DNA of 64,000 bases from a bacterium (GCA_043798715.1 JAZDOK010000004.1:114537-178536), one strand, 5' to 3'. Positions 757-44,744 are shown, counted from the first letter of the stretch. A program made the numbers and translations. Notes: generated by a model from the letters alone, not told the origin.

Positions 757-1452
757 TTATCTGGAGCCCTGTTTCATGAGAAAATCAGCCACGTCAAAGT
801 ACCCCTCCTTACGGGCCTCTTTGGAGGGGGTGTTCCCCTGGAAGTCGGGAAGGTTGAAATCCGCGCCCCTGGAAACGAGGTTCTTCACCGTATCTAAGCG
901 GCCGTTGTCCGCGGCTCTGTAGAGGGGGGTTTCCCCTTTCTCATTGCGTGCGTTTATCTCGGCTCCCTTCGATATGAGATATTCTGCGACGTCCGTGTGT
1001 CCCTGGGAAGCGGCTTCGTGGAGAGGAGTGTTCCCATCGTCGTCCCTGGAGTTGAGATCGGCGCCCTTCGCAACAAGGATTTTCACCAACTCCAGGTAAC
1101 CCTCTGAAGCTTCGATGAGTGGGGTGTCCCCGTCGTTCTCCTTCGCATTCACGTCGGCCCCGGAGGAAATCAGGAACTCGACGATCTCCTTCCGGTTCTT
1201 GTCACAGGCCTTGTGAAGGAGGGTGCATCCCTTGTCGTCCCGGGCATCGAAGAGCGCGGGGTCTTTCTTTAGAAGGTCTTTCACGGTGGCAAGATCCCCT
1301 AGATTGATGGCGGCCCAGATCGTGACGTACTGGGAGTAAGGCACGGGCGTAGCTGAAGGTTGCGGCGATGCCTGGGCTTTGGTGAGAGCCCCCAAAAACA
1401 CCGTGATAATGACGGCGAGGAGTAAAATTACAGGGATAGATTTTTTCTTCAT
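757..1452 (-). CDS. Secreted ankyrin-repeat protein
   Basis: Signal peptide MKKKSIPVILLLAVIITVFLGA, then repeated ankyrin motifs of the form GxTPLHxAAxxGHxxVVxxLLxxGADxNA. Confidence 0.8.
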   Translation of the reverse strand: MKKKSIPVILLLAVIITVFLGALTKAQASPQPSATPVPYSQYVTIWAAINLGDLATVKDLLKKDPALFDARDDKGCTLLHKACDKNRKEIVEFLISSGADVNAKENDGDTPLIEASEGYLELVKILVAKGADLNSRDDDGNTPLHEAASQGHTDVAEYLISKGAEINARNEKGETPLYRAADNGRLDTVKNLVSRGADFNLPDFQGNTPSKEARKEGYFDVADFLMKQGSR

Positions 1453-2472: not shown

Positions 2473-3696
2473 TCACCCGTTGCCGGCCGGAGCGGCAGTA
2501 CGCGCCGTCCGGCTGTATACCCACAGGAGAATAATGGTCAGCAAGCCTATACCCATGTAATAATACCACATGAGAGGGGCATCTCCCCTGAATCCCTCCT
2601 GGGGGCAGTAGCGCGTCAGCATGGCCCCGGCCAGCAATCCCCCGAAGAGGTTGCCGAAGAAACTGGATAGATAGTAACACCCCATGTAAACCCCGGTCTG
2701 CCCCGGAGGGGCCTGGGAGGAGACAAACTCCAGCGCCCTGGGGGCCATCGCCATTTCGCCCAGGGCAATGGTCGCGATTCCCATCAGCATAAGCGGGACG
2801 CTGGGCCGGTGCGAGAATATGAACATGGCAATGCTTATTATGAAGACGCCCAGAATGATTGATTGGAGGGGCTTCATCCGCCTGAGGAGTGCCGTAACCG
2901 GCAGCTGGAAGAGGACGATCATGAGAGGATTCACATTAACCATCCACTCGGGGGCGATCTTATCGCCCAGGGTGCGCAGGGTGTAGAGCGGGAGGGTGAA
3001 GTACATCTGGATGTAGAGCGTATGAAAACCGCTGAGGAGGATCAGAAATACCAGGAGCCGGTAGTTGGTGACCGCCCGCCACAGGTTCAGGAGAACTTCG
3101 GACGGGGTTTTAGCGGCGCTACCCTCCACTCCCGGATCCCGGTAGAAAAAAAAGACCGCGACAAAGGCCAGCACCGCGAGGCCCGCCGAGGCCAGGCAGA
3201 TATACTGGATGCCGAAATGAATGCGCATGGGATAGGCCAGGGTCTTCCCCAGGAATCCGCCGATGTTCACAATGAGGTAGAATATCGAAAAACCCTGGGC
3301 CGCCCGATCTGGGGGAGAGGTTCGCGAGACCGTCCCGGAGATGGTGGGCTTGACGAAGGCCCCGCCCAACGCGATGAATATAAGCGCTATAATCACCGTT
3401 CCCTTCGAGGGAAAGAGGCCCATCACCAGGTAGCCGAAAAAGAGGAGTGAAAAGGCGGCCAGAAGGGCGTTCCTGAATGTAATACGGTCGGCAAGAGTCC
3501 CGCAGAGAGAGGGCAGGATATAGAGGAGCGCCGAGAAAGTTCCGGCGATGGCTCCCGTCTCCATGTCAGAAAACCCCACCAGCCGGGAAAGGTAAAGGGT
3601 TAGGGCGATATACATCCCGTAGTAGGCAAAGCGCTCGAGGAGCTCGATGCCGTTGGCAATCCAGAAAAGACGAGGAAACTTCAAATGATGTTCCAC
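2473..3696 (-). CDS. POT/PTR2-family proton-dependent oligopeptide transporter (MFS)
   Basis: POT signature FWIANGIELLERFAYYGM and GGAFVKPTISGTV; 12-TM hydrophobic profile. Confidence 0.8.
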   Translation of the reverse strand: MEHHLKFPRLFWIANGIELLERFAYYGMYIALTLYLSRLVGFSDMETGAIAGTFSALLYILPSLCGTLADRITFRNALLAAFSLLFFGYLVMGLFPSKGTVIIALIFIALGGAFVKPTISGTVSRTSPPDRAAQGFSIFYLIVNIGGFLGKTLAYPMRIHFGIQYICLASAGLAVLAFVAVFFFYRDPGVEGSAAKTPSEVLLNLWRAVTNYRLLVFLILLSGFHTLYIQMYFTLPLYTLRTLGDKIAPEWMVNVNPLMIVLFQLPVTALLRRMKPLQSIILGVFIISIAMFIFSHRPSVPLMLMGIATIALGEMAMAPRALEFVSSQAPPGQTGVYMGCYYLSSFFGNLFGGLLAGAMLTRYCPQEGFRGDAPLMWYYYMGIGLLTIILLWVYSRTARTAAPAGNG

Positions 3697-3760
3697 TGGA
3701 TATGCAGTCTTGTTTTCCCTTTACCCGGCGTCTTTTTCCCTTTGATGCAAAAATTAAAAC

Positions 3761-5677
3761 TTAAATTCGGCATGAAAGACTTTCCGCCTGGCTCGTGCGG
3801 TTATTATTGGAAAATTCCAATTGAGAAAGTCTCTGTATGTTTTCGTTGCGCTTCTGGCGCTTGCGTTCAAAAGAAGAGAGAATTTTTTTTCGAATCCTCA
3901 CGGACTTGGGAGTTACTTCCACCAATTCATCCGGGCCAATATATTCCAGGGCAAAATCCAGATTGGCATCCCTGGGCGGAGTCAGGATAATCGCATCATC
4001 GGCCCCGGAGGAGCGCATGTTGGTAAGTTTTTTTGTTTTGCAGGCATTAAGCTCAAGATCTGTTGAGGTGGCGTGGATTCCCACCACCATGCCTTCGTAC
4101 ACTTCCACGGCCGGACCGATAAACAGAGTGCCTCTTTCCTGGGCGTTATTCAAGCCGTAAGAATTGGAAAACCCGGCTTCGGAAGAAACCAGACTGCCGT
4201 GTTCGTTACAGCGCAAGTCAATTTCGTGTACGGGTTGGTAGGAGTCAAACAAGTTATTGATTATTACAGTGCCGCGAGTGCGGGTCATCAGTGTATTTTT
4301 AAGGCCGATCAACCCGCGGGTGGGGATTACGTACTCGGCGTGGACGTCGCCGGCGGCATTTGAGTCCAGTTGTTGCATCTGCCCGCCGCGGCGGCCCAAT
4401 TCCTCAATCACCACTCCCTTGAAATCGCCCGGCACATCCACCGTAACAAATTCGTACGGTTCAAGTTTGATTCCATTTTCTTCGTGATAAATCACTTCGG
4501 GCTGTGAAACCTGCAATTCATAACCTTCGCGCCGCATGGTTTCCACCAGCACCGCCAGGTGCAGTTCGCCTCTTCCGGAGACCAGAAAATTGTCACGGCC
4601 TTCATCAAGCCCGTCAACTCTTAAAGACACGTTGGTTTCCAATTCCTTTATCAGACGGTCACGCAAATTACGGGAAGTGAGATATTTCCCTTCGCGTCCG
4701 GCAAAGGGGGAAGTGTTTACGCCGAAAGTCATTTTTATGGTCGGCGGCTCAATATGCACGGGAGGCAGGCTCACCGGGTTTAAAGGGTCCGTCAGCACAT
4801 CGCCGATGTGAATGTCGTCAAAACCGGCCACGGCCACGATGTCTCCGGCCACCGCTTCTACTGCATCAACCTGCTTGAGCCCGGCGTACATCTGCAGGGC
4901 GGTAACCCTGGATGTGTTTATAGTACCGTCCATTTTTACAAGGAGCAGATTCTGGGCTTTGGAAATTTTGCCGGACTTTATTTTTCCGATGCCCAGGCGA
5001 CCTTTGTAGTTGTCGTAATTGAGAGCCAGAATCTGCAGGGCCAGAGGTTCCTCCGGAAAGACTTCCGGGGCCGGGATATAATCGATAATTGCCTGGAACA
5101 GAGCGGAAACATCGGCCTCTGCGGAATTGCTTATTTTTAATTTCAAATCATCCAAATCATTATTGGCCAGGCCCATGACGCCGGATGCAAAGATTATCGG
5201 AAAATCCAACTGGTCGTCATTGGCGCCCAACCTGACGAAAAGGTCAAATGTTCTGTCCACGGTCATATTGGCTTCTTCGCCGTCTTTGTCCACTTTGTTA
5301 ATGACCACGATTGCCTTGAGCCCGAGCTCCAGGGCTTTTTTCAACACGAACTTGGTTTGGGGCATGGGACCTTCCTTGGCGTCAACCAGAAGCAGAACAC
5401 CGTCGGCCATTTTCAGGGTGCGTTCCACTTCTCCGCCAAAATCAGCATGGCCCGGCGTGTCCACGATGTTGATTTTAATGCCTTCGTAAACCACGGAAGC
5501 GTTCTTGGCCTTGATGGTAATGCCGCGTTCGCGCTCCAGGTCCATGCTGTCCATTATCAAGTCCTGCTGGTCATTTTTGACCGATTTGGTCTGTCTTAGC
5601 ATGGCGTCCACCAGCGTGGTTTTGCCGTGGTCAACGTGGGCGATAATCGCGATATTCCTGATGTTGTCTCTTTTCAT
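3761..5677 (-). CDS. typA: Translational GTPase BipA/TypA
   Basis: IAIIAHVDHGKTTLVD G1 motif, DTPGHADFGGEVER, NKVD. Start trimmed to MKRDNIRN (ATG at 5677, with an AAGGGA RBS). The track ORF begins 19 codons upstream. Confidence 0.9.
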   Translation of the reverse strand: MKRDNIRNIAIIAHVDHGKTTLVDAMLRQTKSVKNDQQDLIMDSMDLERERGITIKAKNASVVYEGIKINIVDTPGHADFGGEVERTLKMADGVLLLVDAKEGPMPQTKFVLKKALELGLKAIVVINKVDKDGEEANMTVDRTFDLFVRLGANDDQLDFPIIFASGVMGLANNDLDDLKLKISNSAEADVSALFQAIIDYIPAPEVFPEEPLALQILALNYDNYKGRLGIGKIKSGKISKAQNLLLVKMDGTINTSRVTALQMYAGLKQVDAVEAVAGDIVAVAGFDDIHIGDVLTDPLNPVSLPPVHIEPPTIKMTFGVNTSPFAGREGKYLTSRNLRDRLIKELETNVSLRVDGLDEGRDNFLVSGRGELHLAVLVETMRREGYELQVSQPEVIYHEENGIKLEPYEFVTVDVPGDFKGVVIEELGRRGGQMQQLDSNAAGDVHAEYVIPTRGLIGLKNTLMTRTRGTVIINNLFDSYQPVHEIDLRCNEHGSLVSSEAGFSNSYGLNNAQERGTLFIGPAVEVYEGMVVGIHATSTDLELNACKTKKLTNMRSSGADDAIILTPPRDANLDFALEYIGPDELVEVTPKSVRIRKKILSSFERKRQKRNENIQRLSQLEFSNNNRTSQAESLSCRI

Positions 5678-14469: not shown

Positions 14470-15708
14470 ATGATCATTCTTGTAGTCAACTGCGGCAGCT
14501 CATCCCTCAAGTTTGAGCTGATAGACACCGAAAGCTTCAGTAAGCTCGCCGGGGGGATCATAGACCGAATCGGACAGGAAGGCTCCCTCATAAACCTCCG
14601 GATGGGCCAGGACAAGATCTCTTCCCCTATTCAGGCCAATAATCACAAGGAGGCGATCTCGGACGTCTTCCAATTCCTGACGGGCGAGGGGGGCGTGCTG
14701 AAAAGCCCCGACGAAGTTCACGGAATAGGCCACCGGGTCGTCCATGGCGGCGAAAAATTTCAAAGCGCGACGCTCATCACCGGGGAAGTTCTGAAGGGAA
14801 TTCAAGATTGCATAGGGCTGGCGCCCCTGCACAATCCCGCCAATCTCATGGGTATAGACGCCTGCAGGACGCTGTTTCCGTCCACTCCCCAGGTGGCGGT
14901 CTTCGACACCGCCTTCCACCATACCATTCCCCCCGAAGCCTACACCTATGCCATTCCATACGATCTCTACCTGAAATACGGCATTCGCCGATACGGCTTT
15001 CACGGAACTTCCCACAAGTTTGTCAGCTGGAGGCTGGCCCAGATAAAGAAGAAAAAGATTGAGGAGATGAAGATAATCTCCTGCCACCTCGGCAACGGCT
15101 GCAGCATCACCGCCATAAAAAACGGAATCTCTACCGACACATCCATGGGGATGACCCCTCTCGAGGGACTGGTCATGGGCACCCGTTCGGGGGACCTGGA
15201 CCCTGCCATCATCACCTTTCTCATCGAGAAGGAGAACGTCTCATTCGCTGAAATTGACTTCCTCCTCAACCGGAGGAGCGGACTTCTGGGAATCTCCGGA
15301 AGGTCCAATGACATGCGGGACCTCATGGAAGGAGCCGAAAAAAACAACGACAAGCTCTCGATACTGGCCTTAAATGTCTTCTGCTACCGCCTGAAAAAAT
15401 ACATCGGTTCCTATGCCGCCGCCATGGGCGGGGTGGATGACATCATTTTCACCGCCGGCATCGGTGAAAATTGCCCCTGGGTAAGAAAAAAAGTCATGGA
15501 AAACATGGATTTTCTCGGGGTCTCCATAGATGAGAGCCTCAACGAATCGGCCGCCGGTGAAACCCTTATAAGCACGCCCTCGTCGAAAGTGGGCCTCTGG
15601 GTCATCCCCACCAATGAGGAACTCATGATTGCCACCGAGACGAAAGCGATCCTGGAGGAGAAAGCCTCCGGAAAACCCCTGTTTCAGACGGCTCCGGCAA
15701 TAAGGTAG
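14470..15708 (+). CDS. ackA: Acetate kinase
   Basis: ILVVNCGSSSLKFEL N-terminus, plus the motifs HGTSH and GNGCS. Confidence 0.9.
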   Translation: MIILVVNCGSSSLKFELIDTESFSKLAGGIIDRIGQEGSLINLRMGQDKISSPIQANNHKEAISDVFQFLTGEGGVLKSPDEVHGIGHRVVHGGEKFQSATLITGEVLKGIQDCIGLAPLHNPANLMGIDACRTLFPSTPQVAVFDTAFHHTIPPEAYTYAIPYDLYLKYGIRRYGFHGTSHKFVSWRLAQIKKKKIEEMKIISCHLGNGCSITAIKNGISTDTSMGMTPLEGLVMGTRSGDLDPAIITFLIEKENVSFAEIDFLLNRRSGLLGISGRSNDMRDLMEGAEKNNDKLSILALNVFCYRLKKYIGSYAAAMGGVDDIIFTAGIGENCPWVRKKVMENMDFLGVSIDESLNESAAGETLISTPSSKVGLWVIPTNEELMIATETKAILEEKASGKPLFQTAPAIR

Positions 15709-15739
15709 AGAAAACCGTCTTTCGCGTCCACTTCCAGGA
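15703..15739. repeat. Left copy of a perfect 37-bp direct repeat (aggtagagaaaaccgtctttcgcgtccacttccagga) bracketing the nucleotidyltransferase insertion
   Basis: Identical to 16593-16629. This left copy overlaps the ackA stop codon. Its reverse complement would encode the last roughly 12 codons (LEVDAKDGFLYL) of the 16574-17314 gene. Confidence 0.9.
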
Positions 15740-15864
15740 TGGCTCCACCAATATAAAAAATTCTAAATCAAAGTTATATGGTTTTCAGGGGGCGGGTCAA
15801 TTTCTTTCTTTATTGAAGTGCCAAATGGCATTTTCGGACAGCCTGTCAATGTCTTACCCTGGTG

Positions 15865-16377
15865 TTATTTGATTTCCAGGCGGCCGAGTTCGAGCAGGTT
15901 GTCAAAATCCTCCAAAGAGGACGGCTCCATCCTGGAAAAGAAGGCTCGGGCTTTGCGGATGTTTCCCTCATCGGCCAGGCCGAGCATCCGGGAGATGTCC
16001 GCCAGATCCTGGACCCTTCCGGAGCGAAACTTGAGGAGGATGAAAGATTCGAAGGGCAGGATGGGAAGACCCTGGGCGTCCCGGTTATAAGCGGCATTTC
16101 GGATGGCCTCCGCCTGCCACTCCTCTCGTGCCTCCAGAAGGTCCACCTCAATGCCTTCAGGCGAGTTCCAGGCGGAGCCGCCGATGGAAAGTTCCTGTTT
16201 AAATCCAAAACCCGCCCCTGCGAGGCGCCTGTGAACCTCACCTGCATGAGAAGCCTCTATGAAGACATCCAGGTCGGCCGTCGTTCTTTCCGGCATGTAG
16301 GCGCGGGTAGCGACGCCTCCCACGACGGCCCAGGGAATTTCCCCCAGTGCAGGTGTCAAATCAGGCCAGGTTTTCAT
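15865..16377 (-). CDS. Small nucleotidyltransferase-fold protein (minimal NTase family)
   Basis: hGGx(9-13)DhDh motif in WAVVGGVATRAYMPERTTADLDVFIE. AGGAGG RBS directly upstream of ATG 16377. I preferred this minus-strand call over the overlapping plus-strand ORF 15862-16392. Confidence 0.55.
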   Translation of the reverse strand: MKTWPDLTPALGEIPWAVVGGVATRAYMPERTTADLDVFIEASHAGEVHRRLAGAGFGFKQELSIGGSAWNSPEGIEVDLLEAREEWQAEAIRNAAYNRDAQGLPILPFESFILLKFRSGRVQDLADISRMLGLADEGNIRKARAFFSRMEPSSLEDFDNLLELGRLEIK

Positions 16378-16573
16378 CGCAGTCCTCCTTGAAAGAAATT
16401 CCCGGCTGGTGCCGGAGCCTGGCTTGGCCAGACGAAGGGACAGCCCTATCAGGAATTTTGTGGAGTCTCTTTTTGAAAGAGCCATCTGTTTTACTCCTCT
16501 TTTATTACCTGCAAAATTAGAGCAAGAAGTCAAGATCAGAGCCTCAGAGAAGAAATCTTTCTGAAATACCCGT

Positions 16574-17314
16574 TTATACCGCGCCGGCGATGAGGTAGAG
16601 AAAACCGTCTTTCGCGTCCACTTCCAGGAGCGACCCCTCCAACTTTGCCGGTATGATCTTCTCCAGGTCCACCGTTATTTCCCGGCCGTGCAGGGTCAAC
16701 CCCTCGCCCTGAATGTATTTCCTGGAGCGCTCCATGATGAAGGCCGTCAGGAAATTGGGGATCAAGATCAAAAAGAGCAGGCTGATGTTTTCGATTTTTA
16801 CGGCCAGTTGCCAGGGTCCTTTTACGGCCAGGACAACCTCCCCTGAGAACGGGAATAACTTATAGAAACCGTTGACGTGGATTCTTCCGCCTTCGCGGAA
16901 CTCAAATTTAAGGGAGAGATCCAGCGACTTGAAAAACTTCCGGCTGGAGGGGGAATTCAGCCATTCCCCGGACAGGATAACGGACAGATCTTCGAGTTTG
17001 AAGGTGGTGTCGGAAAGGGAATCCTTTATGCCGGGCTTATCCTCCGAATCGGCTGGCTCTGCGAGTTCTTCTTTGATGGAACCGTCCGAAAGGGAATCCT
17101 TTTTATCATTCGGTTCCTCTTCAGCGTCGCTCAAGGGAGCATCCAGAAGGAAGCTCAGTTTTTCAATCATCAGGCCCTGGAGTTCCCCCTGCCCCGCCTC
17201 CAGAGAATCCAGGGAGCATTTGAGTTTTATTCGGCCTTCCGGGGCTTCCAGCAGCTGGAAACGCAGCTTGTCAAGGGATATGAAATCCAGCAGGTCCTTG
17301 ATTGAATTTTTCAT
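16574..17314 (-). CDS. Hypothetical protein
   Basis: Long ORF with an acidic central region; no motif I recognise. Confidence 0.4.
   Translation of the reverse strand: MKNSIKDLLDFISLDKLRFQLLEAPEGRIKLKCSLDSLEAGQGELQGLMIEKLSFLLDAPLSDAEEEPNDKKDSLSDGSIKEELAEPADSEDKPGIKDSLSDTTFKLEDLSVILSGEWLNSPSSRKFFKSLDLSLKFEFREGGRIHVNGFYKLFPFSGEVVLAVKGPWQLAVKIENISLLFLILIPNFLTAFIMERSRKYIQGEGLTLHGREITVDLEKIIPAKLEGSLLEVDAKDGFLYLIAGAV
16593..16629. repeat. Right copy of the 37-bp direct repeat, lying inside the 3' end of the 16574-17314 gene
   Basis: Exact match to 15703-15739; the flanking similarity extends to about 46 bp with 2 mismatches. Confidence 0.9.
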
Positions 17315-17583
17315 TCTGAGCTGTCCGCCTTTTTGGTGTTGTCGGTTTTAGGCACCGTTTTTTTCTCCGCAGCGGAGGTCGTTTCCGGAGGGGGCACCAA
17401 GTTGCCTCTCCCGTAGTCGTTGACATGGAAACCGCTTCCCTTGAAGACGATCCCGATGGAGCCTATCATTTTCCTTACTTTCCCGCCGCAGAAAGGACAT
17501 TCACTTATCGGCGGATCGTCCATTTTCTGGATAAGCTCGCTAATCTCGCCGCAGCCGAGACAGCGGTATTGATAAATCGGCAT
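17311..17583 (-). CDS. FmdB-family zinc-ribbon protein
   Basis: MPIYQYRCLGCGEISE...CPFCGG matches the FmdB CxxC...CxxC zinc ribbon. Confidence 0.7.
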   Translation of the reverse strand: MPIYQYRCLGCGEISELIQKMDDPPISECPFCGGKVRKMIGSIGIVFKGSGFHVNDYGRGNLVPPPETTSAAEKKTVPKTDNTKKADSSE

Positions 17584-21188: not shown

Positions 21189-21387
21189 GTCGTAATTTTA
21201 TTTCTTCAAGGCCCTTCCAAATCCTTTTTTCGTCACGCTCCCGGCCGCCTCGGGGGATTTTCCCATAAATTTCCTGAACATAGTTGACGAAATCTTTTGC
21301 GACTAATATACTAGGGGGGAAGAAGTTTCTTTACCTGAGAGAAATCGGGCATCTTCCATCAAGGGAAGGAGGTTTGGATCTCACGAC

Positions 21388-22740
21388 ATGAAAAACACAG
21401 CAATATGTCTGATTTTTCTGTTGATCATGGCCCTGGGGGGCGCATCTGCGGCCACCGCCCAGAGCGGGTTCACCCCGGTCTATGTCAACGGAGTCAGAAT
21501 CAATGTTTTTCCGGTTATCAAGGACGGGGTCGTCTTCCTGCCGCCCTACACCATGGCTCAATCACTGGGGGCCAGCATCAAGTATGACTACAGCCTGAAC
21601 ATTCTCAAGATCAACGACATCATGGTTTCAGCCACTCCGTACACTCCACCGGACGGCCAGATTCTTGTTCCGGCGGAGGCTCTTTGCCAGACCATCGGAG
21701 GCTCCCTGGAGTGGGATGGGCAGACCCGGGCCATTCGCATCACCACCCCCCGCTCGGGTGCCACTGTCGCCCAGCCCTATTCCCCGCCACCCATGGTTGC
21801 TCAGGCGCCGACAATCCCCAGTCTGGCTCCAATATCACCCACAATCACCGAACCGACGGGACCTTCCCCTTCATCCTCCTCCAAATCAGCCCCCAATCCT
21901 TACCAGGCCCAGGAAGCTCCTTTCCAGCCCCAGGCGGCACCCTACCAGCCATCCAATTCCGCCCCGAATCCCTACCAGGCCCAAACGTCTTCATCCTTTC
22001 CACCGCCCCCTTCCGGCTCTTCTTCCCTTTCATACTATCCGAGTGGCATTATCCCCATAACCACTCCTGTAACCACTAATAATCCACCTTACCAGCCCAC
22101 CGCTCCCTCATACAACCCCCCTGCTGCCGGCAACCAGGCGCCCGCCGGCAGTCCCCAAACCACCTCCCCTCAGGACACGATGAACTACAATCCGACAATG
22201 CCCCAGACGAGTTTCCCATCCGGCTCCATCTACCAGCAGCCGGCCTATTCAGCCAAATCCCCAACCTCCGCTCCCCCGCAGATCCCGTCATCAGTGCAGC
22301 AGCTCTCCCAGGCCACCATCTATAACCCCCCGGGGGCGGCTCCGCTGACTCCCAGCAACATACCGACTTTCTCCACCGACATTTTCCGGCCGGTCACGGC
22401 CAATAATTCGGTTTTTTCAGTGACCGTCACCAACATCGAAACCATGAATACCATTAAGGACTACTACAAGCCCAAGACCGGCTATAAATTTGTAACGGTC
22501 TACCTCTCCCAGCAGAACGTCTCAAATGAAGTGCAGATCTACACCGGCCGCTTCTCCATGCTTGACCAGAGCAACACCTCCTACGACTACGCCGAGCAGT
22601 TGAGCAACTTCTGGCTGATTATTCTCAAGCCGGGAGGAATCAACTTCGGATACCTGGTCTTTGAAGTGCCCCAGGATGCCAGACCCGCGCGCCTGCTTCT
22701 GCATGCGTTGAACCAGGCGCCGCTCAGCCTGAACTTGTAA
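21388..22740 (+). CDS. Secreted protein: Cu-amine-oxidase N-terminal-like domain, a Pro/Gln/Ser-rich linker, and a C-terminal DUF4352-like domain
   Basis: Signal peptide; VYVNGVRINVFPVIKDGVVFLPPY; roughly 200 aa of low-complexity P/Q/S/T/A sequence; C-terminal YKPKTGYKFVTVYLSQQNVSNEVQIY. Confidence 0.6.
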   Translation: MKNTAICLIFLLIMALGGASAATAQSGFTPVYVNGVRINVFPVIKDGVVFLPPYTMAQSLGASIKYDYSLNILKINDIMVSATPYTPPDGQILVPAEALCQTIGGSLEWDGQTRAIRITTPRSGATVAQPYSPPPMVAQAPTIPSLAPISPTITEPTGPSPSSSSKSAPNPYQAQEAPFQPQAAPYQPSNSAPNPYQAQTSSSFPPPPSGSSSLSYYPSGIIPITTPVTTNNPPYQPTAPSYNPPAAGNQAPAGSPQTTSPQDTMNYNPTMPQTSFPSGSIYQQPAYSAKSPTSAPPQIPSSVQQLSQATIYNPPGAAPLTPSNIPTFSTDIFRPVTANNSVFSVTVTNIETMNTIKDYYKPKTGYKFVTVYLSQQNVSNEVQIYTGRFSMLDQSNTSYDYAEQLSNFWLIILKPGGINFGYLVFEVPQDARPARLLLHALNQAPLSLNL

Positions 22741-22757
22741 AGGAGTGATAGGAAACC

Positions 22758-24059
22758 ATGCATTTTAAGCCCAAATTTTTCACTTTCCTCTCGAGAATGC
22801 TCGCGCTTGCTTTCATTTTCTTCCTCCTCGGGTCCAGGCAGATTCCCGCCCAGGATTCCCAGGTCTATGTCACTTTCTGGCATGCCATGGATGGGTACAA
22901 GGGCGAGGTTTTAAGAACTCTGGTGGAGCGCTTCAACATGACTCACCCCGGCATCATCGTGGACGAAAAGTGCGTCGGCAAGTCGGAGCGGTCCTTTGCG
23001 GATGCTTATAATATTCTTTTTTCAAGCATCCTCGAAAACCTGGCCATGAAGAATCCGCCCGACATCGCGCAGGTCTATGAAAACTGGACCACCCAGCTCA
23101 TTGAATGCGGGGCTCTCGTGTCCATGGAAAATTTCATTCGCAGCCCGCAGGGCTTCAGCCAGAATGAATTAAAAGACATCTTTCCGGTCTTTATGGAAGC
23201 GAACACCTACGGAAAGAAGATCTGGACCCTCCCCTTCAATAAAAGCATCTACGTCCTCTACTACAACAAGGACGCCTTCTGGAGAGCGAATGCGGCCCCC
23301 CCGAAAACATGGGCCGAACTTCGGCAACTGGCCAAGAAACTGACTGTCTCCCAGGGGGATTACGTCCAGCAGTACGGGCTCGCCTTTGACCCCAGCGTGG
23401 ACACTTTCGGCCACTGGCTGTATGCCCACGAGGGCAACTTCCTCACTAAAAGCAACGAAGTCGGCTTCAACAACACGCTGGGCTACAAGGACATTCAGTA
23501 CTGGGTGGACCTCGTAAACACCGACCATTCGGCCCTGCCGCTTCCTTCCGGCGAGGCGCTGAAGGAATTTCAGAATCAGCATGCCGCGATGTACATCGAG
23601 ACCACCTCCAAGCTTTCCTCTATGGAAAAATGCAACTTCAGATGGGGGATGGCCACCCTTCCCAAGGGGAGCGTAAAGGCCTACGGCTTTGCGGGAACCA
23701 ACCTGGCCATTTTCGCCAACTCCTCCCCCGATAAACGCCGGGCCGCCTGGACTTTCGTAAAATGGCTTCTGGACACGGAGAATACCACCGAATGGGCCAT
23801 ACAGACAGGCTACCTTCCGGTGAGAAAATCAGCCGTCGAGAGTTTCCAGTATCAGGCCTACCTCCGGAAAAACCCGGAATTCAACGCGGCCATCGATTCG
23901 CTGGAACACGCCATCTGCCAGCCCCGTATATCGACCTGGCAGACAATCCGGGGGATCATCAACGATGCCCTTTTTGAGGCTATTTCGAGACAGAAGACGC
24001 CGAAAAAAGCGCTGGATGACGCGGCCAAGGTCATCATCAGCCAGCGCTATGTAAAATAA
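22758..24059 (+). CDS. ABC transporter substrate-binding protein (family 1, sugar-type)
   Basis: Signal peptide plus solute-binding-protein family 1 features (YVTFWHAMDGYKG, WTLPFNKS); no permease or ATPase gene next to it. Confidence 0.75.
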   Translation: MHFKPKFFTFLSRMLALAFIFFLLGSRQIPAQDSQVYVTFWHAMDGYKGEVLRTLVERFNMTHPGIIVDEKCVGKSERSFADAYNILFSSILENLAMKNPPDIAQVYENWTTQLIECGALVSMENFIRSPQGFSQNELKDIFPVFMEANTYGKKIWTLPFNKSIYVLYYNKDAFWRANAAPPKTWAELRQLAKKLTVSQGDYVQQYGLAFDPSVDTFGHWLYAHEGNFLTKSNEVGFNNTLGYKDIQYWVDLVNTDHSALPLPSGEALKEFQNQHAAMYIETTSKLSSMEKCNFRWGMATLPKGSVKAYGFAGTNLAIFANSSPDKRRAAWTFVKWLLDTENTTEWAIQTGYLPVRKSAVESFQYQAYLRKNPEFNAAIDSLEHAICQPRISTWQTIRGIINDALFEAISRQKTPKKALDDAAKVIISQRYVK

Positions 24060-24130
24060 TAGATATGCGGCTAATACGCTTGAGGGTTTGAACGCCTTCC
24101 AACACGGAAAGGAGGTTTAGATCTGACGAG

Positions 24131-24988
24131 TTGAAAAAAACAGCTTTATGCCTCGTTTTCCTGATGGTTATGGCCCTTCGGGGATCTCTTTCGGTCACCG
24201 CCCAGGGCGAATTCACCCGGGTCTATGTCAACGGGGTCATTGTCGATGTTTTCCCGGTCGTCAGGGAGGGAATAGTCTACCTGCCGCCCTATGTCATGGC
24301 TAAGTCGCTGGGGGCCAGCATCAGGTATGATTACAACCTGAAAATCCTCGCTATCAACGACATTATAATCCCTTTTTACACTCCCCCGGACGGCCGGACG
24401 CTGGTTCCCGTGGAAGAGCTCTGCCAGGCCATCGGATGCACCGTGGAGTGGGATGGGCGGACCCGGGCTATTCGGATCTCCACCTTCCCACCGGAGGTGA
24501 AACCTTCCCCGAAACCCACCGAAAATCCCTACGATAAGCAGTCTGTTCCCCTCCCCACCTCCACTCCGTCCTTTTTCCCCTCCGAAACTCCCATGCCAAC
24601 TCCCTTCAACCCAGGAAGCGACATCTTTATGCCGGTTACAGTCTCCAACGGAATTTTTTCGGTGACCGTCTCCGACATGAAAACAGTGAATGCCATAAAG
24701 GACTACTACAAGCCCAAGACCGGCTATAAATTTGTAACGGTCTACCTCTCCCAGCAGAACGTCTCAAACGAAGTGCAGATCTACTCAGGCCGATTCTCCA
24801 TGATTGACAAGAAAAACGCCACCTACGACTACGCCGAGCAGTTGAGCAACTTCTGGCTGATCATTCTCAGGCCTGGTGGAATCAACTTCGGATACCTGGT
24901 CTTTGAGGTGCCCCAGGATGCCAGACCCGTGCGCCTGCTCCTGCAGGCGAAGGCGCCGCTCAATATTAATTTGACAGGGGAGCGATAG
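24131..24988 (+). CDS. Secreted paralog of the 21388-22740 gene, lacking the low-complexity linker (TTG start)
   Basis: About 100 bp is nearly identical (1 mismatch) to 22455-22545, and the RBS region (ggaaggaggtttRgatctSacga) is also conserved. Confidence 0.6.
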   Translation: MKKTALCLVFLMVMALRGSLSVTAQGEFTRVYVNGVIVDVFPVVREGIVYLPPYVMAKSLGASIRYDYNLKILAINDIIIPFYTPPDGRTLVPVEELCQAIGCTVEWDGRTRAIRISTFPPEVKPSPKPTENPYDKQSVPLPTSTPSFFPSETPMPTPFNPGSDIFMPVTVSNGIFSVTVSDMKTVNAIKDYYKPKTGYKFVTVYLSQQNVSNEVQIYSGRFSMIDKKNATYDYAEQLSNFWLIILRPGGINFGYLVFEVPQDARPVRLLLQAKAPLNINLTGER

Positions 24989-40765: not shown

Positions 40766-41047
40766 CTAATGATAGTCAACGATTTCTACGTTATAACAAT
40801 TCCCGTTTTGCCATTCGAAACAAATCCTCCATCGGTCATTGATGCGGATGCTGTACTGTCCTTCCCGATCGCCTTTTAGCCTTTCAAGAAAATTCGAGGG
40901 CGGCACCCGCAAATCATTGAGCATATGGGAATTATTGAGCATCCTTAACTTTCTCCTGGCGATGGCCTGAATGTCAAAAGGCAATTTTCTCGAAGGGAGG
41001 CCATCCCATATTTTTCTGGTTTCTTTCGAGCGAAATGACTGAATCAC
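40766..41047 (-). CDS. higB: HigB toxin (RelE/ParE superfamily)
   Basis: FRSKETRKIWDG...NDRWRICFEW..G.CYNVEIVDYH; toxin-first HigBA gene order. Confidence 0.85.
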   Translation of the reverse strand: MIQSFRSKETRKIWDGLPSRKLPFDIQAIARRKLRMLNNSHMLNDLRVPPSNFLERLKGDREGQYSIRINDRWRICFEWQNGNCYNVEIVDYH

Positions 41048-41302: not shown

Positions 41303-41618
<316 letters not shown>

Positions 41619-41646
<28 letters not shown>

Positions 41647-41712
41647 GCTTTGTCGTAAAGGGCTCTGACCCTTTTCCCCCTATTCTGTCAATTGTGTAGA
41701 CGTGACCCCTAT
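41619..41712. repeat. Junction repeat, modules Y-X-Z; module Y overlaps the 3' end of brnA
   Basis: Y = cagccgacgcacaggaacgcgcggctgagctttgtcgt (identical at 44517-44554). X = ctctgaccctttt. Z = tattctgtcaattgtgtagacgYgacccctat (also at 43040-43071 and 44585-44617). Confidence 0.85.
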
Positions 41713-41713
41713 G

Positions 41714-42976
41714 TCATAAGGCAAACCAGGGATAGACAATCGTTCCAGCTCTTTTAAAGGACGAATCCCCGCCATACACAAGAGCGGCCGGATCGTTGGA
41801 GCGGCTGGAGAGATTCCGCCAGTCATTCAATCCTTTGAAAAAGTCGCCCGCAATGGTCTGAGCTGATTTAACCTCCACCGGAGTCAGCCGGCCACCCTGT
41901 TCGACGAGGAGATCCACCTCCCGTCCGGATGTGTCACGCCAGAAACTCAGGGCAGGCAGCTCGCCCCGGTTCAAGAAGTTCTTGTAGAATTCGGATAAGA
42001 CGTAACTTTCAAAAATGCCGCCCTTCATCGCGTGATGGTGAAGCTCCTCCGGGAATCGAATCTGAAGAAGGAAGCACAAAAGACCGGTGTCCAGGAAATA
42101 AAGCTTCGGGCTTTTGATAAGGCGTTTCCCGAAGTTCTGGTGATGAGGTCTGAGAAGCACGATCAGAAAGCTGGCCTCCAGAACCGAAATCCAGCGTCTT
42201 GCGGTCGTATGCGTGATGCCGCAGTCTGAGGCCAGGGACGACAAATTTAACAGCTGGGCGTTCCGACCGGCACAGAGCCGGACAAATCGGCCGAAGGACT
42301 CCAGGTCGCCCATCTTCAAAACATTCCGGACGTCCCGCTCCAGGTAAGTCTGGTAATAATTTCCCAGCCAGTCCTGCGGGGGTAGCCTTTTGTCGTGAAT
42401 CCGTGGATAAAAACCTGTAAAAAGGACTTCTGCCAGTTTTTTTCCCGGTGCTCCGGTACCCTGATAAGTTTTTCTTCCCAGTTCCGAAAGAGTAAAAGGC
42501 TTATGACCGGACAGTTCGGCATGGGAAAACGGCAAAAGGTGCAGAACGGCACATCGTCCGGCCAGAGATTGGGAAATGCCCTGGAGAAGGAGAAAATTAT
42601 GCGAGCCTGTCAGGATGAATTGTCCCGCTTTATTCTGTTCATCCACCATGACTTGAATATAGGAAAACAAGTCCGGGACGCGCTGGGCTTCGTCCAGAAT
42701 AACCGGGCCTTCAAACTGCGAGAGAAACCCCCGGGGATCTTCCATAGCAAAAGCGCGTTGATCGGGAAGCTCTAGAGTTGAGTAGGCGTAATCTTTAAAT
42801 ACGGCTCTGACCAGGGTGGTTTTGCCCGATTGACGCGGCCCCGTGACTGTTACGACCGGATATCGGCCGGCGGCCTCCTTGAGTTTTTTCGCCAGGGTTC
42901 GAGGAATCATGGCCGTACCTCTTTTGCTATTTGAATATCCAATATTCAATTTACATGATATCTCGAATTTTGTCAA
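41714..42976 (-). CDS. AAA+ ATPase with a C-terminal DUF4143 domain (COG1373-type)
   Basis: Walker A GPRQSGKTT, Walker B VILDEAQ, and a C-terminal DUF4143-like region. Confidence 0.75.
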   Translation of the reverse strand: MTKFEISCKLNIGYSNSKRGTAMIPRTLAKKLKEAAGRYPVVTVTGPRQSGKTTLVRAVFKDYAYSTLELPDQRAFAMEDPRGFLSQFEGPVILDEAQRVPDLFSYIQVMVDEQNKAGQFILTGSHNFLLLQGISQSLAGRCAVLHLLPFSHAELSGHKPFTLSELGRKTYQGTGAPGKKLAEVLFTGFYPRIHDKRLPPQDWLGNYYQTYLERDVRNVLKMGDLESFGRFVRLCAGRNAQLLNLSSLASDCGITHTTARRWISVLEASFLIVLLRPHHQNFGKRLIKSPKLYFLDTGLLCFLLQIRFPEELHHHAMKGGIFESYVLSEFYKNFLNRGELPALSFWRDTSGREVDLLVEQGGRLTPVEVKSAQTIAGDFFKGLNDWRNLSSRSNDPAALVYGGDSSFKRAGTIVYPWFAL

Positions 42977-42999: not shown

Positions 43000-43093
43000 A
43001 AGGGCAGCCTGCCCCCTTTATTCTCGGCATCTTTTCCCCTATTCTGTCAATTGTGTAGACGCGACCCCTATATCCTTCGACCCCTATATCCTT
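43000..43093. repeat. Junction repeat, diverged X plus Z, followed by a tandem 16-bp duplication (cgacccctatatcctt, twice)
   Basis: Module Z lies at 43040-43071; the 16-mer copies are at 43062-43077 and 43078-43093. Confidence 0.8.
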
Positions 43094-43361: not shown

Positions 43362-44348
43362 TCAAGGCTTGTCCTTCGTTGGCGGCGGCAATTGCTTGAC
43401 GGCGCGGTCGAAGTCGGATTCGAGGTGCCGATCCTCGATATTGCGAAACTCGACGAACTCGCGTTCCGAGTGGGTTCGGGCCAACTCGGCCGACACTTTA
43501 CCGGCGTTCTGTAATATTTCCCGGTCGTTCAATGTCAAAAAACCCTCCAGCTTCGTGATCCAATCGTTCATCGTCATGGCTATCCGACGCTCGGCCTGGG
43601 ACTCGGCAAAGATGAGATACTGTTCGACGAGGTTATTGAGCGCACGCAGCTCTTCTTCATTTAAATAGTTTTTTGCAATGGCGACGTCCGATTTGCGGAT
43701 ACGCGCCCCCTCCCAGTTAGTGAGACCCATGTTCGGCATTCTGCTGTCAGCGCGGAACAAGATAACCTCGACGGCGGTCTGGCCGTGAATAGCGTAATGC
43801 ACCTTGTTTTGCACCGTAGCGAAGAACTCCTGGGTGAGCGGGTGGTCCTTGTCGTAGTCTATGCTCGTGGCGTAGATGTCTGTGATTTTCTGGTAAAAAC
43901 GCCGCTCGCTCGTGCGGATATCCTGGATGCGCCGGGTGAGCTCCTCGAAGTAGTCGTTTCCTGCTTTCGGGTTTTTCAGACGCTCGTCATCCAGCACAAA
44001 GCCCTTGATGATGTACTCTTTAAGCTTGTCTGCGGCCCACTGACGGAAGCGCACGGCCACCGGGCTACGCACCCTGAAACCCAGGGCCAGGACCATGTCG
44101 AGGTTGTAATGAGCCACCTCGTACTGTTTACCGTCTGCGGCAGTTGTTCGGAAAAACCGAACAACTGAATCTTCCTCCAGTTCTTCGTCCTCAAAGATGT
44201 GTTTGATGTGTTCACTGATGGTGCCCTTGGCCTTGCCGAACAACTCCACGAGCTGCTTCTGGTTGAGCCAGATGTTCCGGTCTTCGAGGCGAACGTCGAG
44301 TTTCGTGCGGCCGTCCTCGCTCTGGTAGATGAGAATCTGGTTCATCAC
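43362..44348 (-). CDS. RhuM-family protein (virulence/defence-associated, DNA-binding)
   Basis: N-terminus IYQSEDGRTKLDVRLEDRNIWLNQKQLVELFGK...VRFRQWA; overall pattern like rhuM. Confidence 0.7.
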   Translation of the reverse strand: MMNQILIYQSEDGRTKLDVRLEDRNIWLNQKQLVELFGKAKGTISEHIKHIFEDEELEEDSVVRFFRTTAADGKQYEVAHYNLDMVLALGFRVRSPVAVRFRQWAADKLKEYIIKGFVLDDERLKNPKAGNDYFEELTRRIQDIRTSERRFYQKITDIYATSIDYDKDHPLTQEFFATVQNKVHYAIHGQTAVEVILFRADSRMPNMGLTNWEGARIRKSDVAIAKNYLNEEELRALNNLVEQYLIFAESQAERRIAMTMNDWITKLEGFLTLNDREILQNAGKVSAELARTHSEREFVEFRNIEDRHLESDFDRAVKQLPPPTKDKP

Positions 44349-44460: not shown

Positions 44461-44617
44461 GCCTTTTTAAGCACGGCAGATTCTAATTCGTCGTAAAGGG
44501 CACTGTCCCCTTTATCCCAGCCGACGCACAGGAACGCGCGGCTGAGCTTTGTCGTTCGTCGTAAGGGGCTCTGACCCTTTTATCCTTATTCTGTCAATTG
44601 TGTAGACGCGACCCCTA
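44461..44617. repeat. Most complete junction repeat: modules W-X-Y-(tail of W)-X-Z
   Basis: Contains a copy of the 3' end of brnA (module Y) detached from any brnA gene. Confidence 0.85.
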
Positions 44618-44744
44618 TGACCTTGAATTTTCCCTCCCAGATCATCTCCTTAAAAAAAACATGAAGTCGAGCATCCCGACTGATTGTACCACACCCACTG
44701 TGACAAAGACTGTCATTGTGATTTCAGATGACGATTTTTTTATA

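Follow-up and report, generated by a model that had tools for sequence, protein, structure and literature searches.

Organization of the locus

The window, a stretch of 64,000 nucleotides from a bacterial metagenome-assembled genome (GCA_043798715.1, JAZDOK010000004.1:114537-178536), carries a solitary nucleotidyltransferase (NTase) gene between ackA and a convergent gene for a 246-aa protein, as listed in Table 1. In agreement with the original prediction, the NTase gene lies on the strand opposite to ackA, and on that of the 246-aa gene. Both host genes read through intact. The surroundings are conserved, with a Zn-ribbon gene and ackA adjoining the 246-aa gene in all relatives. The 246-aa protein itself gave no above-threshold match in Pfam, NCBIfam and PADLOC scans and no match in an exact look-up, and no relative was found on the contigs of the GTDB species representatives, a set from which the window lineage is absent. 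The likely start of the NTase is the ATG at 16485, as in its homologues, and not the TTG at 16533.

Table 1. Coordinates of the genes, repeat copies and cassette parts at the ackA locus (positions in the window)
Feature	Position	Strand	Basis or remark
ackA (acetate kinase, 412 aa)	14470..15708	+	Pfam PF00871, E 3.6e-153
Left target copy, native, contiguous with ackA	15655..15751		Holds the ackA stop codon, 15706-15708
Left exact 37-nt block	15703..15739		Identical to L004 over the same stretch
Cassette 3' untranslated tail, AT-rich	15752..15864	-	97% identical to L001
Solitary NTase gene, 206 aa	15865..16485	-	Ribosome-binding site GAGGAG, 8 nt before the ATG; 741 homologues of equal length
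Cassette upstream region, possible promoter TTGACT at 16527-16532	16486..16546	-	Conserved with L001 from 16533 inward
Right target copy	16547..16642		Functional 3' end of the 246-aa gene
Right exact 37-nt block	16593..16629		Repeat search
246-aa host gene, target with duplicated 3' end	16574..17314	-	Stop codon 16574-16576

The insert of ~800 nt holds one homologue-supported gene, the one with the NTase fold, and neither an integrase nor a transposase gene. Any promoter function of the TTGACT element is only inferred, since a consensus promoter scan gave it no score. An inverted-repeat search of 15000-17500 returned none in 15740-15864, nor any attC-like or terminal inverted repeat, and an Rfam search of 15500-16800 gave no match. 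The cassette is not set apart as foreign by its base composition (57.6% GC in the NTase gene vs 54.2% in the window), although sliding windows had hinted at this.

Empty sites in relatives

Comparison with related genomes was the check suggested with the original prediction, and it revealed the empty site. Loci L004-L008, L014 and L029 have one repeat copy and no NTase; both sides align to the window, and 15752-16546 is missing. The ackA genes of these relatives are 96%, 91% and 79% identical to that of the window. The insertion between ackA and the convergent gene is thereby borne out, and an ancient fixed arrangement is ruled out, because close relatives have the empty site with its single repeat copy. 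In L004-L008 the two convergent genes share an overlap of 31-41 nt, which takes in the last ~25-41 nt of ackA. Because the host genes overlap in the empty site, both can be intact around an insert only with a duplication; it is the duplication of the target that gives each of them a complete 3' end. A metagenome scan with a conserved 20-mer of the target found 21 loci, of which two were related (both of the L004 lineage) and none was a further filled site. Our main reading, taken together with the mode of integration proposed below at roughly 60% probability, is that ~15752-16546 is a horizontally acquired single-gene cassette inside the overlap of ackA and the 246-aa gene, flanked by target copies of ~100 nt.

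Structure of the direct repeat

The two 37-nt blocks of Table 1 are exact copies, as predicted, and nothing else in the window matches them with 3 or fewer mismatches (expected number 0, from 100 shuffles); the left one does overlap the ackA stop. The figure of 37 nt stands for the exact block, but the duplication is longer. It extends to 57 nt at 89% identity without gaps (15683-15739 / 16573-16629) and to ~97 nt with gaps (79/98 identical, ~81%). The duplication is therefore ~100 nt, of which only the 37-nt block has remained, or become, identical. Both copies align to the single copy in L004 and L007, and the repeats exceed 30 bp. The right block had been described as the last 12 codons of the 246-aa gene; it does encode 12 codons of this gene, but a further 6 codons and the stop follow them. 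These final 6 codons and the stop fall within the distal 20 nt that carry all 6 mismatches of the 57-nt repeat, the 37-nt block having none.

The differences between the copies show which one is native. Wherever they differ, the left copy has the empty-site sequence of L004 and L007 (CTTATTGCCGG..GTCTGA) and the right tail departs from it. Relative to the native copy, the tail at 16573-16592 has only third-position or stop-for-stop changes. The left copy is shown by this comparison to be native, and the tail of the right copy is imported. Read on the minus strand, the left copy still gives ...ILEVDAKDGFLYLIAGAV followed by a stop, what is left of the displaced 3' end of the 246-aa gene, while 16547-16572 in the right copy is a decayed remnant of the ackA tail. 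In both copies decay has affected the stretches that ceased to be required for coding, those on the left being the proximal ~12-15 nt (15740-15754). The 37-nt block of the left copy is itself mostly non-coding, and we infer that it was the zone of crossover or conversion.

Differences between repeat copies are biased toward synonymous changes in the frame of the host gene, both in the window (P=0.008) and at two other loci of the family, L046 (P<0.0005) and L047 (P=0.001). Because the differences are mostly synonymous, they point to homology arms carried over from the alleles of other lineages. Later replacement of the functional gene copy by a relative's allele would be another possible source of this bias.

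Movement between lineages

In L001, a sister contig from an independent metagenome sample, the cassette is again present, with 97.4% identity (759/779; 98.1% over the ORF). Identity between L001 and the window is 86-90% in the repeat segments and only 56% in the part of the ackA tail that lies beyond the overlap; since the L001 flanks are only ~45 and ~140 nt, the host divergence is an estimate from little sequence. The right-hand tail and spacer have 47% identity, with a 19-nt indel. As the cassette is 97.4% identical within far more diverged flanks, the sequences show that it moved between lineages into the same site. The NTase codons of the window and L001 differ by 9 nonsynonymous vs 2 synonymous changes, which could reflect relaxed constraint.

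L001 also bears on whether the arrangement is an artefact, that is, a metagenome mis-assembly or a tandem duplication unconnected with acquisition of the NTase. The window does come from a metagenome-assembled genome, and many family members sit on ~1-kb contigs. However, the independent L001 has the same cassette, the remnant-side junction and the last ~20 nt of the gene-side repeat copy. The copies have diverged and are much shorter than the k=141 of L001's assembler, both host genes are intact, and the empty sites show that the intervening 800 nt are foreign to the locus. Because L001 is independent and the repeat is shorter than that k-mer, an assembly artefact is unlikely, and we give this explanation as a whole only a slight chance.

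The repeat and L001 can likewise be set against an event that happened entirely in place. Here the cassette would be inserted at cuts staggered by ~100 nt, made by the NTase itself or by a dedicated enzyme supplied in trans. Fill-in synthesis would then give a true target-site duplication, and the differences between the copies would be later drift. Such an event would fit the target-site-duplication architecture with a repeat found once in the empty site, the symmetrical decay of the newly non-coding parts of both copies, and the recurrence of the pattern with the same gene family at unrelated targets (see below). A few IS elements are reported to make long duplications of variable length. 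Duplications of 19-26 bp by IS1630 are mentioned by Furuta et al. (PMC2853133). What drift in place explains poorly is that the relative with 96% ackA identity is empty, yet the neutral parts of the repeat differ by ~27-30% and the 37-nt block by 0. The nearly identical cassette in the much more diverged flanks of L001 and the synonymous bias at three loci also speak against it, as do the lack of conserved termini between loci and the presence of the same architecture around cargos other than an NTase. We regard an in-place event as improbable.

The NTase and its family

The predicted fold agrees with the assignment as a minimal NTase. The AF2 model (pLDDT 86.9) has a DNA polymerase beta-like NTase fold followed by a C-terminal helical domain, and a Foldseek search with it placed chains of MenT1 first (1.7e-7, TM ~0.55), followed by ANT(2'')-Ia (3.8e-6, TM ~0.42), TM1012 and LnuA (4.9e-4). 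The fold is almost equally near to the antibiotic-modifying ANT(2'')-Ia and LnuA as to MenT1. A profile search likewise matched the family to MenT1 (PDB 8an4, E 1.3e-4). The window protein has no Pfam, NCBIfam or PADLOC family above threshold. Sub-threshold matches to PF08843 occur in 10/36 relatives (best E 2e-3), the window NTase having none, and weak sub-threshold matches to PF10706 in 13/36 family members.

MenT1 (Rv0078A, PDB 8AN4) is a toxin of M. tuberculosis (PMC10435456, PMC11375011). MenT/AbiEii NTases have four conserved motifs, which include the metal-binding G[GS]...DxD, a Lys motif and DxxD (PMC11375011). In the window family, GG-x13-D71-x-D73, K152, R157 and D160-x-x-D163 are invariant or nearly so, and the invariant T69, D71, K152, D160 and D163 align with T39, D41, K137, D149 and D152 of MenT1, so that the phospho-acceptor Thr and the catalytic Asp and Lys all have counterparts. 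The two proteins differ in that identity is only ~20%, and MenT1 lacks the conserved N-terminal extension of ~45 aa (PGxGS..FL..RT) of the window family. A profile of this extension matched, among PDB sequences, only the GS motif of TGF-beta type I receptors, a resemblance that was treated as chance at E 0.7.

Unlike MenT/AbiEii systems, in which MenA or AbiEi is the antitoxin, the window family has no adjacent antitoxin in any of 83 loci. Neither a HEPN gene nor any other conserved partner was found there, and only lineage-specific synteny is shared, in line with the expectation that no partner gene is evident. The cassette has no room for an antitoxin gene. An MNT-HEPN pair was rejected, there being no partner in the window, no recurrent neighbour in the 83 loci and no PADLOC match. 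Relatives fused to Xre- or MarR-type HTH domains do exist. The cargo is most likely a self-regulated, toxin-like enzyme with RNA 3' ends as its substrate, to judge from its intact catalytic motifs and predicted fold. Alternatively, it could be a small-molecule NTase of the antibiotic type, like ANT(2'')-Ia or Lnu, that moves as a resistance cassette. The Foldseek scores just behind MenT1, the PF10706 matches and a solitary gene, as expected of an enzyme that needs no partner, are all compatible with this. Nevertheless, MenT1 is the top match by both sequence and fold, the K...R..D..D motif is invariant and aligns with MenT1, the HTH fusions resemble antitoxin-toxin fusions, and every Pfam match is sub-threshold, which makes a resistance function rather unlikely.

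The family, which is uncurated, comprises ~1,700 clusters at 50% identity. It is absent from plasmid, phage and IMG/VR collections, so that these searches yielded no vehicle. Upstream genes are co-oriented at 46 loci vs divergent at 22, counts that are only indicative as they derive from naive ORF calls in GC-rich genomes.

Recurrence at other loci

Long direct repeats (33-217 nt) bracket the family gene in 6/76 loci from different phyla, compared with 1/337 control positions (odds ratio 29, P=2e-4); the other 70 loci have no flanking repeat within 500 nt. Where examined, most of these repeats duplicate the end of the host gene upstream; at L046, L047 and L089 they correspond to the 3' end of a co-oriented gene on that side, namely PPDK, a GH26-like gene and an SDR gene. 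These targets are unrelated to one another and to the 246-aa gene, a terminator hairpin is also among the targets, and the repeats of different loci have no common sequence or core. The cassette termini are likewise not conserved between loci. At the same three loci there is little or nothing between the repeats beyond the NTase ORF or small cargo genes; in L047 it is essentially a bare ORF with ~12 nt added. L035 has tandem copies of the cassette, and L089 has two cassettes with a target copy after each. The same architecture also occurs without the NTase, around vapBC and DUF4258/Zn-finger cargos.

This survey also bears on a site-specific integrase (tyrosine or serine) that would have recombined attB inside the 246-aa gene with an attP resembling its 3' end, the rest of the element with the integrase having been deleted later or acting in trans. 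Some genomic islands integrate in this way at the 3' ends of tRNA or protein genes. The window shares their layout, in that an imported, element-borne 3' end restores the gene, the original end is displaced, and an identical core lies beside diverged arms. Such islands can also insert one after another at the same gene end, as at tRNA hotspots, and the two cassettes of L089 are comparable. In contrast, the window insert of only ~800 nt has one homologue-supported gene and no integrase, and among the neighbours of the NTase in the 83 loci no family of recombinase-like proteins is recurrent. The near-empty intervals of L046, L047 and L089, the unrelated targets without a common att core, the spread of repeat lengths and the absence of the family from phage, plasmid and IMG/VR collections add to the case against an integrase, which we consider quite unlikely.

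Mode of integration

Insertion had been predicted to be either a target-site duplication or facilitated by homology. Both probably apply, at different times: most likely, an old, long duplication of the target made the repeat, and the window copy was acquired later by homologous recombination through the duplicated segment. Recombination through a carried target copy is the best model of integration in the window and, in our judgement, probably the right one. The first duplication, in an ancestor, would have been an illegitimate insertion with its two junctions staggered by ~100 nt. Insertions staggered in this manner survive because nothing is lost. From then on the cassette would circulate among related lineages, with its target copy as a portable homology arm. 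Recombination between the flanking repeats would loop out the cassette together with one hybrid repeat, and the looped-out DNA could enter a naive relative by a single Campbell-type (ends-in) crossover where the target is best conserved, recreating the duplication. In the window this crossover would be placed in the 37-nt identical block. The selfish or defensive value of the putative NTase toxin, as suggested by its fold and motifs, may keep the cassette in place. The crossover model is drawn from sequence patterns, and its circular or excised forms are putative. To cover the difference in right-hand tail between L001 and the window, it needs the assumption that every passage re-samples the arm.

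A bolder reading, which we offer tentatively as less probable than not, is that the family as a whole consists of minimal, recombinase-free selfish cassettes, for which the re-sampled arm from the target 3' end would provide site specificity without a site-specific enzyme. In its strongest version the NTase product helps to make the first duplication, for example by extension of 3' ends at staggered breaks.

Comparison with known systems

Insertion with long target duplication has been described for restriction-modification (RM) systems (Nobusato et al. 2000, Gene 259:99; Furuta, Abe & Kobayashi 2010, PMC2853133). Furuta et al. looked for an empty site, repeats of >30 bp, an insert of <20 kb with no integrase or transposase, and RM cargo. 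The window locus has the first two and its ~800-nt insert lacks a mobile-element gene, but the cargo is one NTase gene, so that the insertion mode is the same and the cargo class different. The window locus matches this known mode, with a cargo class other than RM. In both cases a small selfish unit without transposase or integrase is bracketed by repeats of tens to hundreds of bp that are single in the empty site; repeat lengths are variable among RM insertions too, and some of the repeats reach into the 3' end of an adjacent gene. Furuta et al. hypothesised that RM systems invade, amplify through the repeats and are released; tandem amplification through repeats has been observed, while release and re-invasion are hypothesised (PMC2853133). 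Because the window cargo is an NTase and not an RM system, DNA breakage by the cargo cannot be invoked. Unlike the RM cases, the target in the window is the overlap of two convergent genes, and there is direct sequence evidence both of the cassette moving between diverged lineages into the same site and of an origin of one repeat copy in another lineage's allele. The NTase cassettes also differ from the RM cases in belonging to one gene family that recurs across several phyla.

Integron cassettes offer a further parallel, being single genes of ~0.6-0.9 kb that are often co-oriented close behind an upstream gene, and NTases and toxin-antitoxin pairs are typical cargo classes of integron arrays, as here. 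An integron cassette was nevertheless rejected, as no attC-like imperfect palindrome is present at the cassette 3' end. Moreover, the repeats around the NTase are host coding sequence that is single in the empty site, a pattern not generated by recombination in integrons.

Significance

The route documented by this locus, by which selfish genes move with the help of neither a transposase nor an integrase, has rarely been described. For RM genes, insertion with long target duplication was inferred ~25 years ago; here, a different cargo of selfish type, a solitary MenT-like NTase, has the same architecture in several phyla, as do toxin-antitoxin pairs. One locus combines a clean empty site, evidence of re-entry in a diverged lineage and a codon-level signature of import. 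A compact genome can evidently take up a gene inside the overlap of two essential-looking genes with neither of them damaged. MenT-type catalytic residues, as aligned here, in a family that lacks an antitoxin gene raise the question of how the enzyme is restrained. Should the strongest version of the bolder reading be true, the cassette would represent a new kind of mobile element, autonomous and made up of one gene. In sum, the locus and its relatives recast what was a descriptive category as a model open to testing, that of homology-arm-guided integration dependent on host recombination.

Insertion into a gene overlap

The gene between ackA and the convergent 246-aa gene, a small nucleotidyltransferase (NTase), belongs to what is almost certainly a horizontally acquired cassette that was inserted with a long duplication of its target. 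It is the one homologue-supported gene in the interval. The perfect 37-bp direct repeat described in the original prediction is present, as the two 37-nt blocks are identical; the window has no third copy at up to three mismatches, and none is expected by chance. Without gaps the repeat extends to 57 nt at 89% identity, and with gaps to about 97 nt (79/98 identical). All six mismatches of the 57-nt repeat lie in its distal 20 nt: one changes TGA to TAA, and the other five affect third codon positions. Since the antiparallel overlap of ackA and the 246-aa gene has third codon positions in register, each of these sites is a third position in either frame. The minus strand of the left copy (at the ackA side) still encodes ...ILEVDAKDGFLYLIAGAV followed by a stop.

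Empty sites were found in relatives, with one copy of the repeat, as the original prediction had proposed to look for. The 246-aa protein has only five homologues among 5.8 billion sequences, and their contigs share the order gatB, small ORF, moeA-like, Zn-ribbon, 246-aa gene, ackA, 188-aa gene, coaD, rsmD and recG. In relatives whose ackA is 96% (L004, L005, L006, L014 and L029), 91% (L007) or 79% (L008) identical to that of the window in nucleotides, there is a tail-to-tail overlap of 31-41 nt between the 246-aa gene and ackA, the repeat is present once and the NTase is absent. The window thus carries an insertion relative to the empty site, with a duplication of about 100 nt that preserves both overlapping genes. 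In a multiple alignment, the duplicated target begins about 15 nt upstream of the 37-nt block and extends about 28 nt past the stop of the 246-aa gene, and because the target was duplicated, an insertion inside the overlap truncated neither gene. The same alignment reveals symmetrical decay, in the left copy at 15740-15754, a stretch needed by the 246-aa gene only, and in the right copy at 16547-16572, a stretch needed by ackA only. The native copy is the left one: it is contiguous with ackA, and where the two copies differ it has the empty-site sequence (CTT ATT GCC GG ... GTC TGA), whereas the right copy departs from it in its tail (CTC ATC GCC GGC GCG GTA TAA). The finding stands, and its first interpretation, a target-duplicating or homology-facilitated insertion, is essentially right.

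The site also accepts other small cassettes, since in L009 (a contig with a 63%-identical 246-aa orthologue; positions 3365-3776) a DUF2283 gene follows the gene end in place of ackA or the NTase; this contig stops before the position where a second target copy would appear. DUF2283 genes are often associated with toxin-antitoxin systems.

Further repeats occur in the window. Three direct copies of about 65-100 nt form a second repeat-bracketed array, with 40 nt exact between copies 1 and 3 and the core CCYTATTCTGTCAATTGTGTAGACGYGACCCCTAT kept in all three. Copy 1 overlaps the end (last ~10 codons) of an 80-aa ORF that adjoins a HigB-like toxin gene, and a NERD-domain gene follows. The array may be another such insertion with target duplication. 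Elsewhere, long direct repeats that have diverged, one of 300 nt (87%) and one of 271 nt (78%), connect a 450-aa and a 285-aa ORF; the latter looks like a paralogue of the former with an internal deletion.

Features of the window and of repeat-bracketed loci in other genomes
Locus	Feature	Positions	Strand	Remarks
Window	ackA	14470-15708	+	PF00871, E 3.6e-153
Window	NTase gene	15865-16485	minus	206 aa
Window	246-aa gene	16574-17314	minus	ORF, function unassigned, convergent
Window	37-nt repeat	15703-15739 / 16593-16629
Window	57-nt ungapped repeat	15683-15739 / 16573-16629
Window	~97-nt gapped repeat	15655-15751 / 16547-16642
Window	450-aa and 285-aa ORFs	21388-22740 / 24131-24988		long repeats span 21353-24918
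Window	HigB-like toxin gene	40766-41047
Window	Array	41617-44619		copies 41617-41713, 43008-43072, 44516-44619
Window	DUF4143/AAA_14 ATPase gene	41714-42976	minus	separated by repeat copies from RhuM gene
Window	RhuM gene	43362-44348	minus
L046, Planctomycetota	Repeat			127 nt at 86%, 47 nt exact; last 42 codons of pyruvate phosphate dikinase
L047, Abditibacteriaceae	Repeat			90 nt at 87%; last 30 codons of GH26-like gene
L089, Chloroflexota	Repeat	3307-4743		last 49 nt of SDR gene, three copies separating two cassettes
L105, Caldilineaceae	Repeat			33 nt; hairpin between convergent genes, on both sides
L049, NC10	Repeat			217 nt at 91%
L035, Obscuribacterales	Repeat			tandem cassette copies, period 1,262 nt
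L082, control match	vapBC pair	796-1432		170-nt direct repeat, 82% (492-1593)

The nucleotidyltransferase and its family

The most likely translation start is the ATG at 16485, which has GAGGAG 8 nt upstream; the 741 homologues detected match the resulting length of 206 aa. The NTase has no above-threshold match in Pfam, NCBIfam (standard cut-offs) or PADLOC, its sole trace in Pfam being PF14907 (E ~0.1), and weak, sub-threshold matches to the NTP_transf_5, ANT(2'') and AbiEii models occur among 36 relatives. Against solved structures, the family profile has one significant match, the NTase toxin MenT1 of M. tuberculosis (8an4, E 1.3e-4), and a Foldseek search with the AlphaFold model (pLDDT 86.9) also places MenT1 at the top (1.7e-7, TM ~0.55), followed by ANT(2'')-Ia, TM1012 and LnuA. 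Residues shown to matter in MenT1 are T39, D41, K137, D149 and D152 (PMC11375011), with which the family-invariant T69, D71, K152, D160 and D163 of the NTase align.

A further family feature, lacking in MenT1, is a conserved extension of ~45 residues at the N-terminus (consensus RRRQRPGxGS..FL..RT), predicted at lower AlphaFold confidence. Its motif PGxGS..FL..RT (residues 22-36) is weakly like the phosphorylated GS motif of TGF-beta type I receptors (E 0.7), probably by chance. A stronger second Shine-Dalgarno sequence, AAGGAGG (window 16363-16379), precedes an in-frame internal ATG (Met37); this arrangement is kept in the filled sister contig L001 but not family-wide, and from it a short isoform without the extension is conceivable. 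A minority of relatives carry an Xre-, IclR/MarR- or AsnC-type HTH ahead of the NTase, fusions that resemble antitoxin-toxin fusions. The extra N-terminal domains in the relatives P0169, P0188, P0245 and P0213 are an Xre-type HTH, winged HTHs (MarR/IclR/AsnC type) and an IS1595-type transposase zinc ribbon.

That no partner gene is evident, as first noticed, holds on a wider comparison: the cassette has no room for one, and clustering of neighbouring ORFs at 83 loci yielded no family common across phyla, only lineage-specific synteny (seven Poribacteria). An exhaustive HMM search puts the family at ~1,730 clusters at 50% identity. Genome matches come from Chloroflexota, Armatimonadota, Poribacteria, NC10, Planctomycetota and others, and none were found in plasmid, phage or IMG/VR collections.

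Bracketing repeats in other genomes

At 76 usable genome loci from the family scan, the 500 nt upstream of the NTase were compared with the 500 nt downstream. Six of them have strong direct repeats on either side of the gene; of 337 control positions taken from the 76 loci, one does (odds ratio 29, Fisher P=2e-4). The single control match is a vapBC pair bracketed by copies of the 5' end of an AAA ATPase gene; three NTase copies are also present in this Chloroflexi genome. At four loci, namely the window, L046, L047 and L089, the gene with the duplicated end is followed downstream by the NTase in the same orientation. At L047, the NTase ATG is 2 nt past the GH26-like stop and the displaced copy begins 2 nt past the NTase stop, so the insert is essentially a bare ORF. 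One L089 cassette holds the NTase and the other a DUF4258 gene with a cysteine-rich ORF (Zn-finger-like by eye, with no Pfam match), possibly a toxin-antitoxin pair; the middle repeat copy is the most diverged of the three, yet keeps its reading frame and stop codon. The architecture recurs in the family with no recombinase gene and no conserved cassette ends; repeats of different loci have no sequence in common, and the cassette ends no common motif.

Transfer between lineages and probable recombination

Differences between functional and displaced copies were counted per codon in the host-gene frame, with P against random placement. Synonymous and nonsynonymous codons number 7 and 5 in the window (P 0.008), 12 and 3 at L046 (P <0.0005), and 8 and 7 at L047 (P 0.001). 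A useless remnant drifting in place would give the opposite bias, so the differences arose largely while both copies were working gene ends in different lineages; one of the two copies stems from another allele. The central 37-nt block of the window has zero differences, though mostly non-coding in the left copy, while the neutral parts flanking it are 27-30% diverged. Together with the empty site of the closest relative, this points to recombination and not to drift in place.

Transfer can be followed in L001, an independent 964-nt ENA contig whose protein is 96% identical to the window NTase. Identity is 97.4% (759/779) over the putative promoter region, ORF and 3' tail (window 16533 to 15755), against 87% in the proximal remnant (a'), 86.5% in the 37-nt block (b), 89.5% in the tail (c), 56% in the ackA tail beyond the overlap and 47%, with a 19-nt indel, in the right tail and spacer. 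The window and L004, by comparison, share ~89% identity (171/193) across the remnant and adjacent ackA tail. The L001 remnant ends like the L009 gene (...GCCGGAGCCGCTTAAGACGGGT). A near-identical cassette therefore occupies this site in a host that is clearly more distant, and since the closest relatives of the window are empty, it has passed between diverged lineages by recent horizontal transfer and re-insertion at the same place. The two NTase proteins differ by nine nonsynonymous and two synonymous codons, none at invariant positions.

Proposed cycle and relation to known systems

These comparisons can be united in a model of loop-out, transfer and homologous re-entry via a carried target copy, to which we assign a probability of roughly 0.6. 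The cassette would carry along a copy of its own target, and recombination between the flanking repeats would excise it as a loop that keeps one hybrid repeat. Once transferred, the cassette would re-enter by one homologous crossover (Campbell-type, or ends-in if the DNA is linear) within the best-conserved stretch of the target, and the duplication would be regenerated. For the window, this stretch would be the 37-nt block, in which even L004 has no differences. With a crossover there, the gene-side copy should be of host origin upstream of the block and imported downstream of it, and the ackA-side copy the other way round, as seen. The faster divergence of the arms than of the cargo would follow from their re-sampling in each host. 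Our best guess for the first duplication at each new target is illegitimate insertion with staggered junctions, which would survive selection because nothing is deleted.

Insertion with long target duplication was defined by Nobusato et al. (2000) and extended for restriction-modification (RM) systems by Furuta et al. 2010 (PMC2853133). Its repeats, of 30 to >400 bp, occur once in the empty site, mobility genes are absent, some repeats overlap gene 3' ends, and amplification through the repeats has been reported; a virus-like cycle of invasion, amplification and release is those authors' hypothesis, without evidence of release or re-infection (PMC2853133). A later review still assigns the mode to RM systems only (PMC3874152). 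The window has every structural feature of this mode but not its cargo of RM genes. As for the cargo, the NTase is like the MenT/AbiEii toxins in fold and motifs but falls under the threshold of curated models and lacks their defining antitoxin neighbour, and is best described as MenT-like, not as a member. Membership of the MNT-HEPN systems, integron cassettes and integrase islands was rejected, a defining feature being missing in each case. The cassette is thus not a new principle, but a variant of a poorly understood insertion mode. What is new is a different class of cargo, a target where two genes overlap, recurrence in several phyla, and sequence evidence for arm-guided re-insertion.
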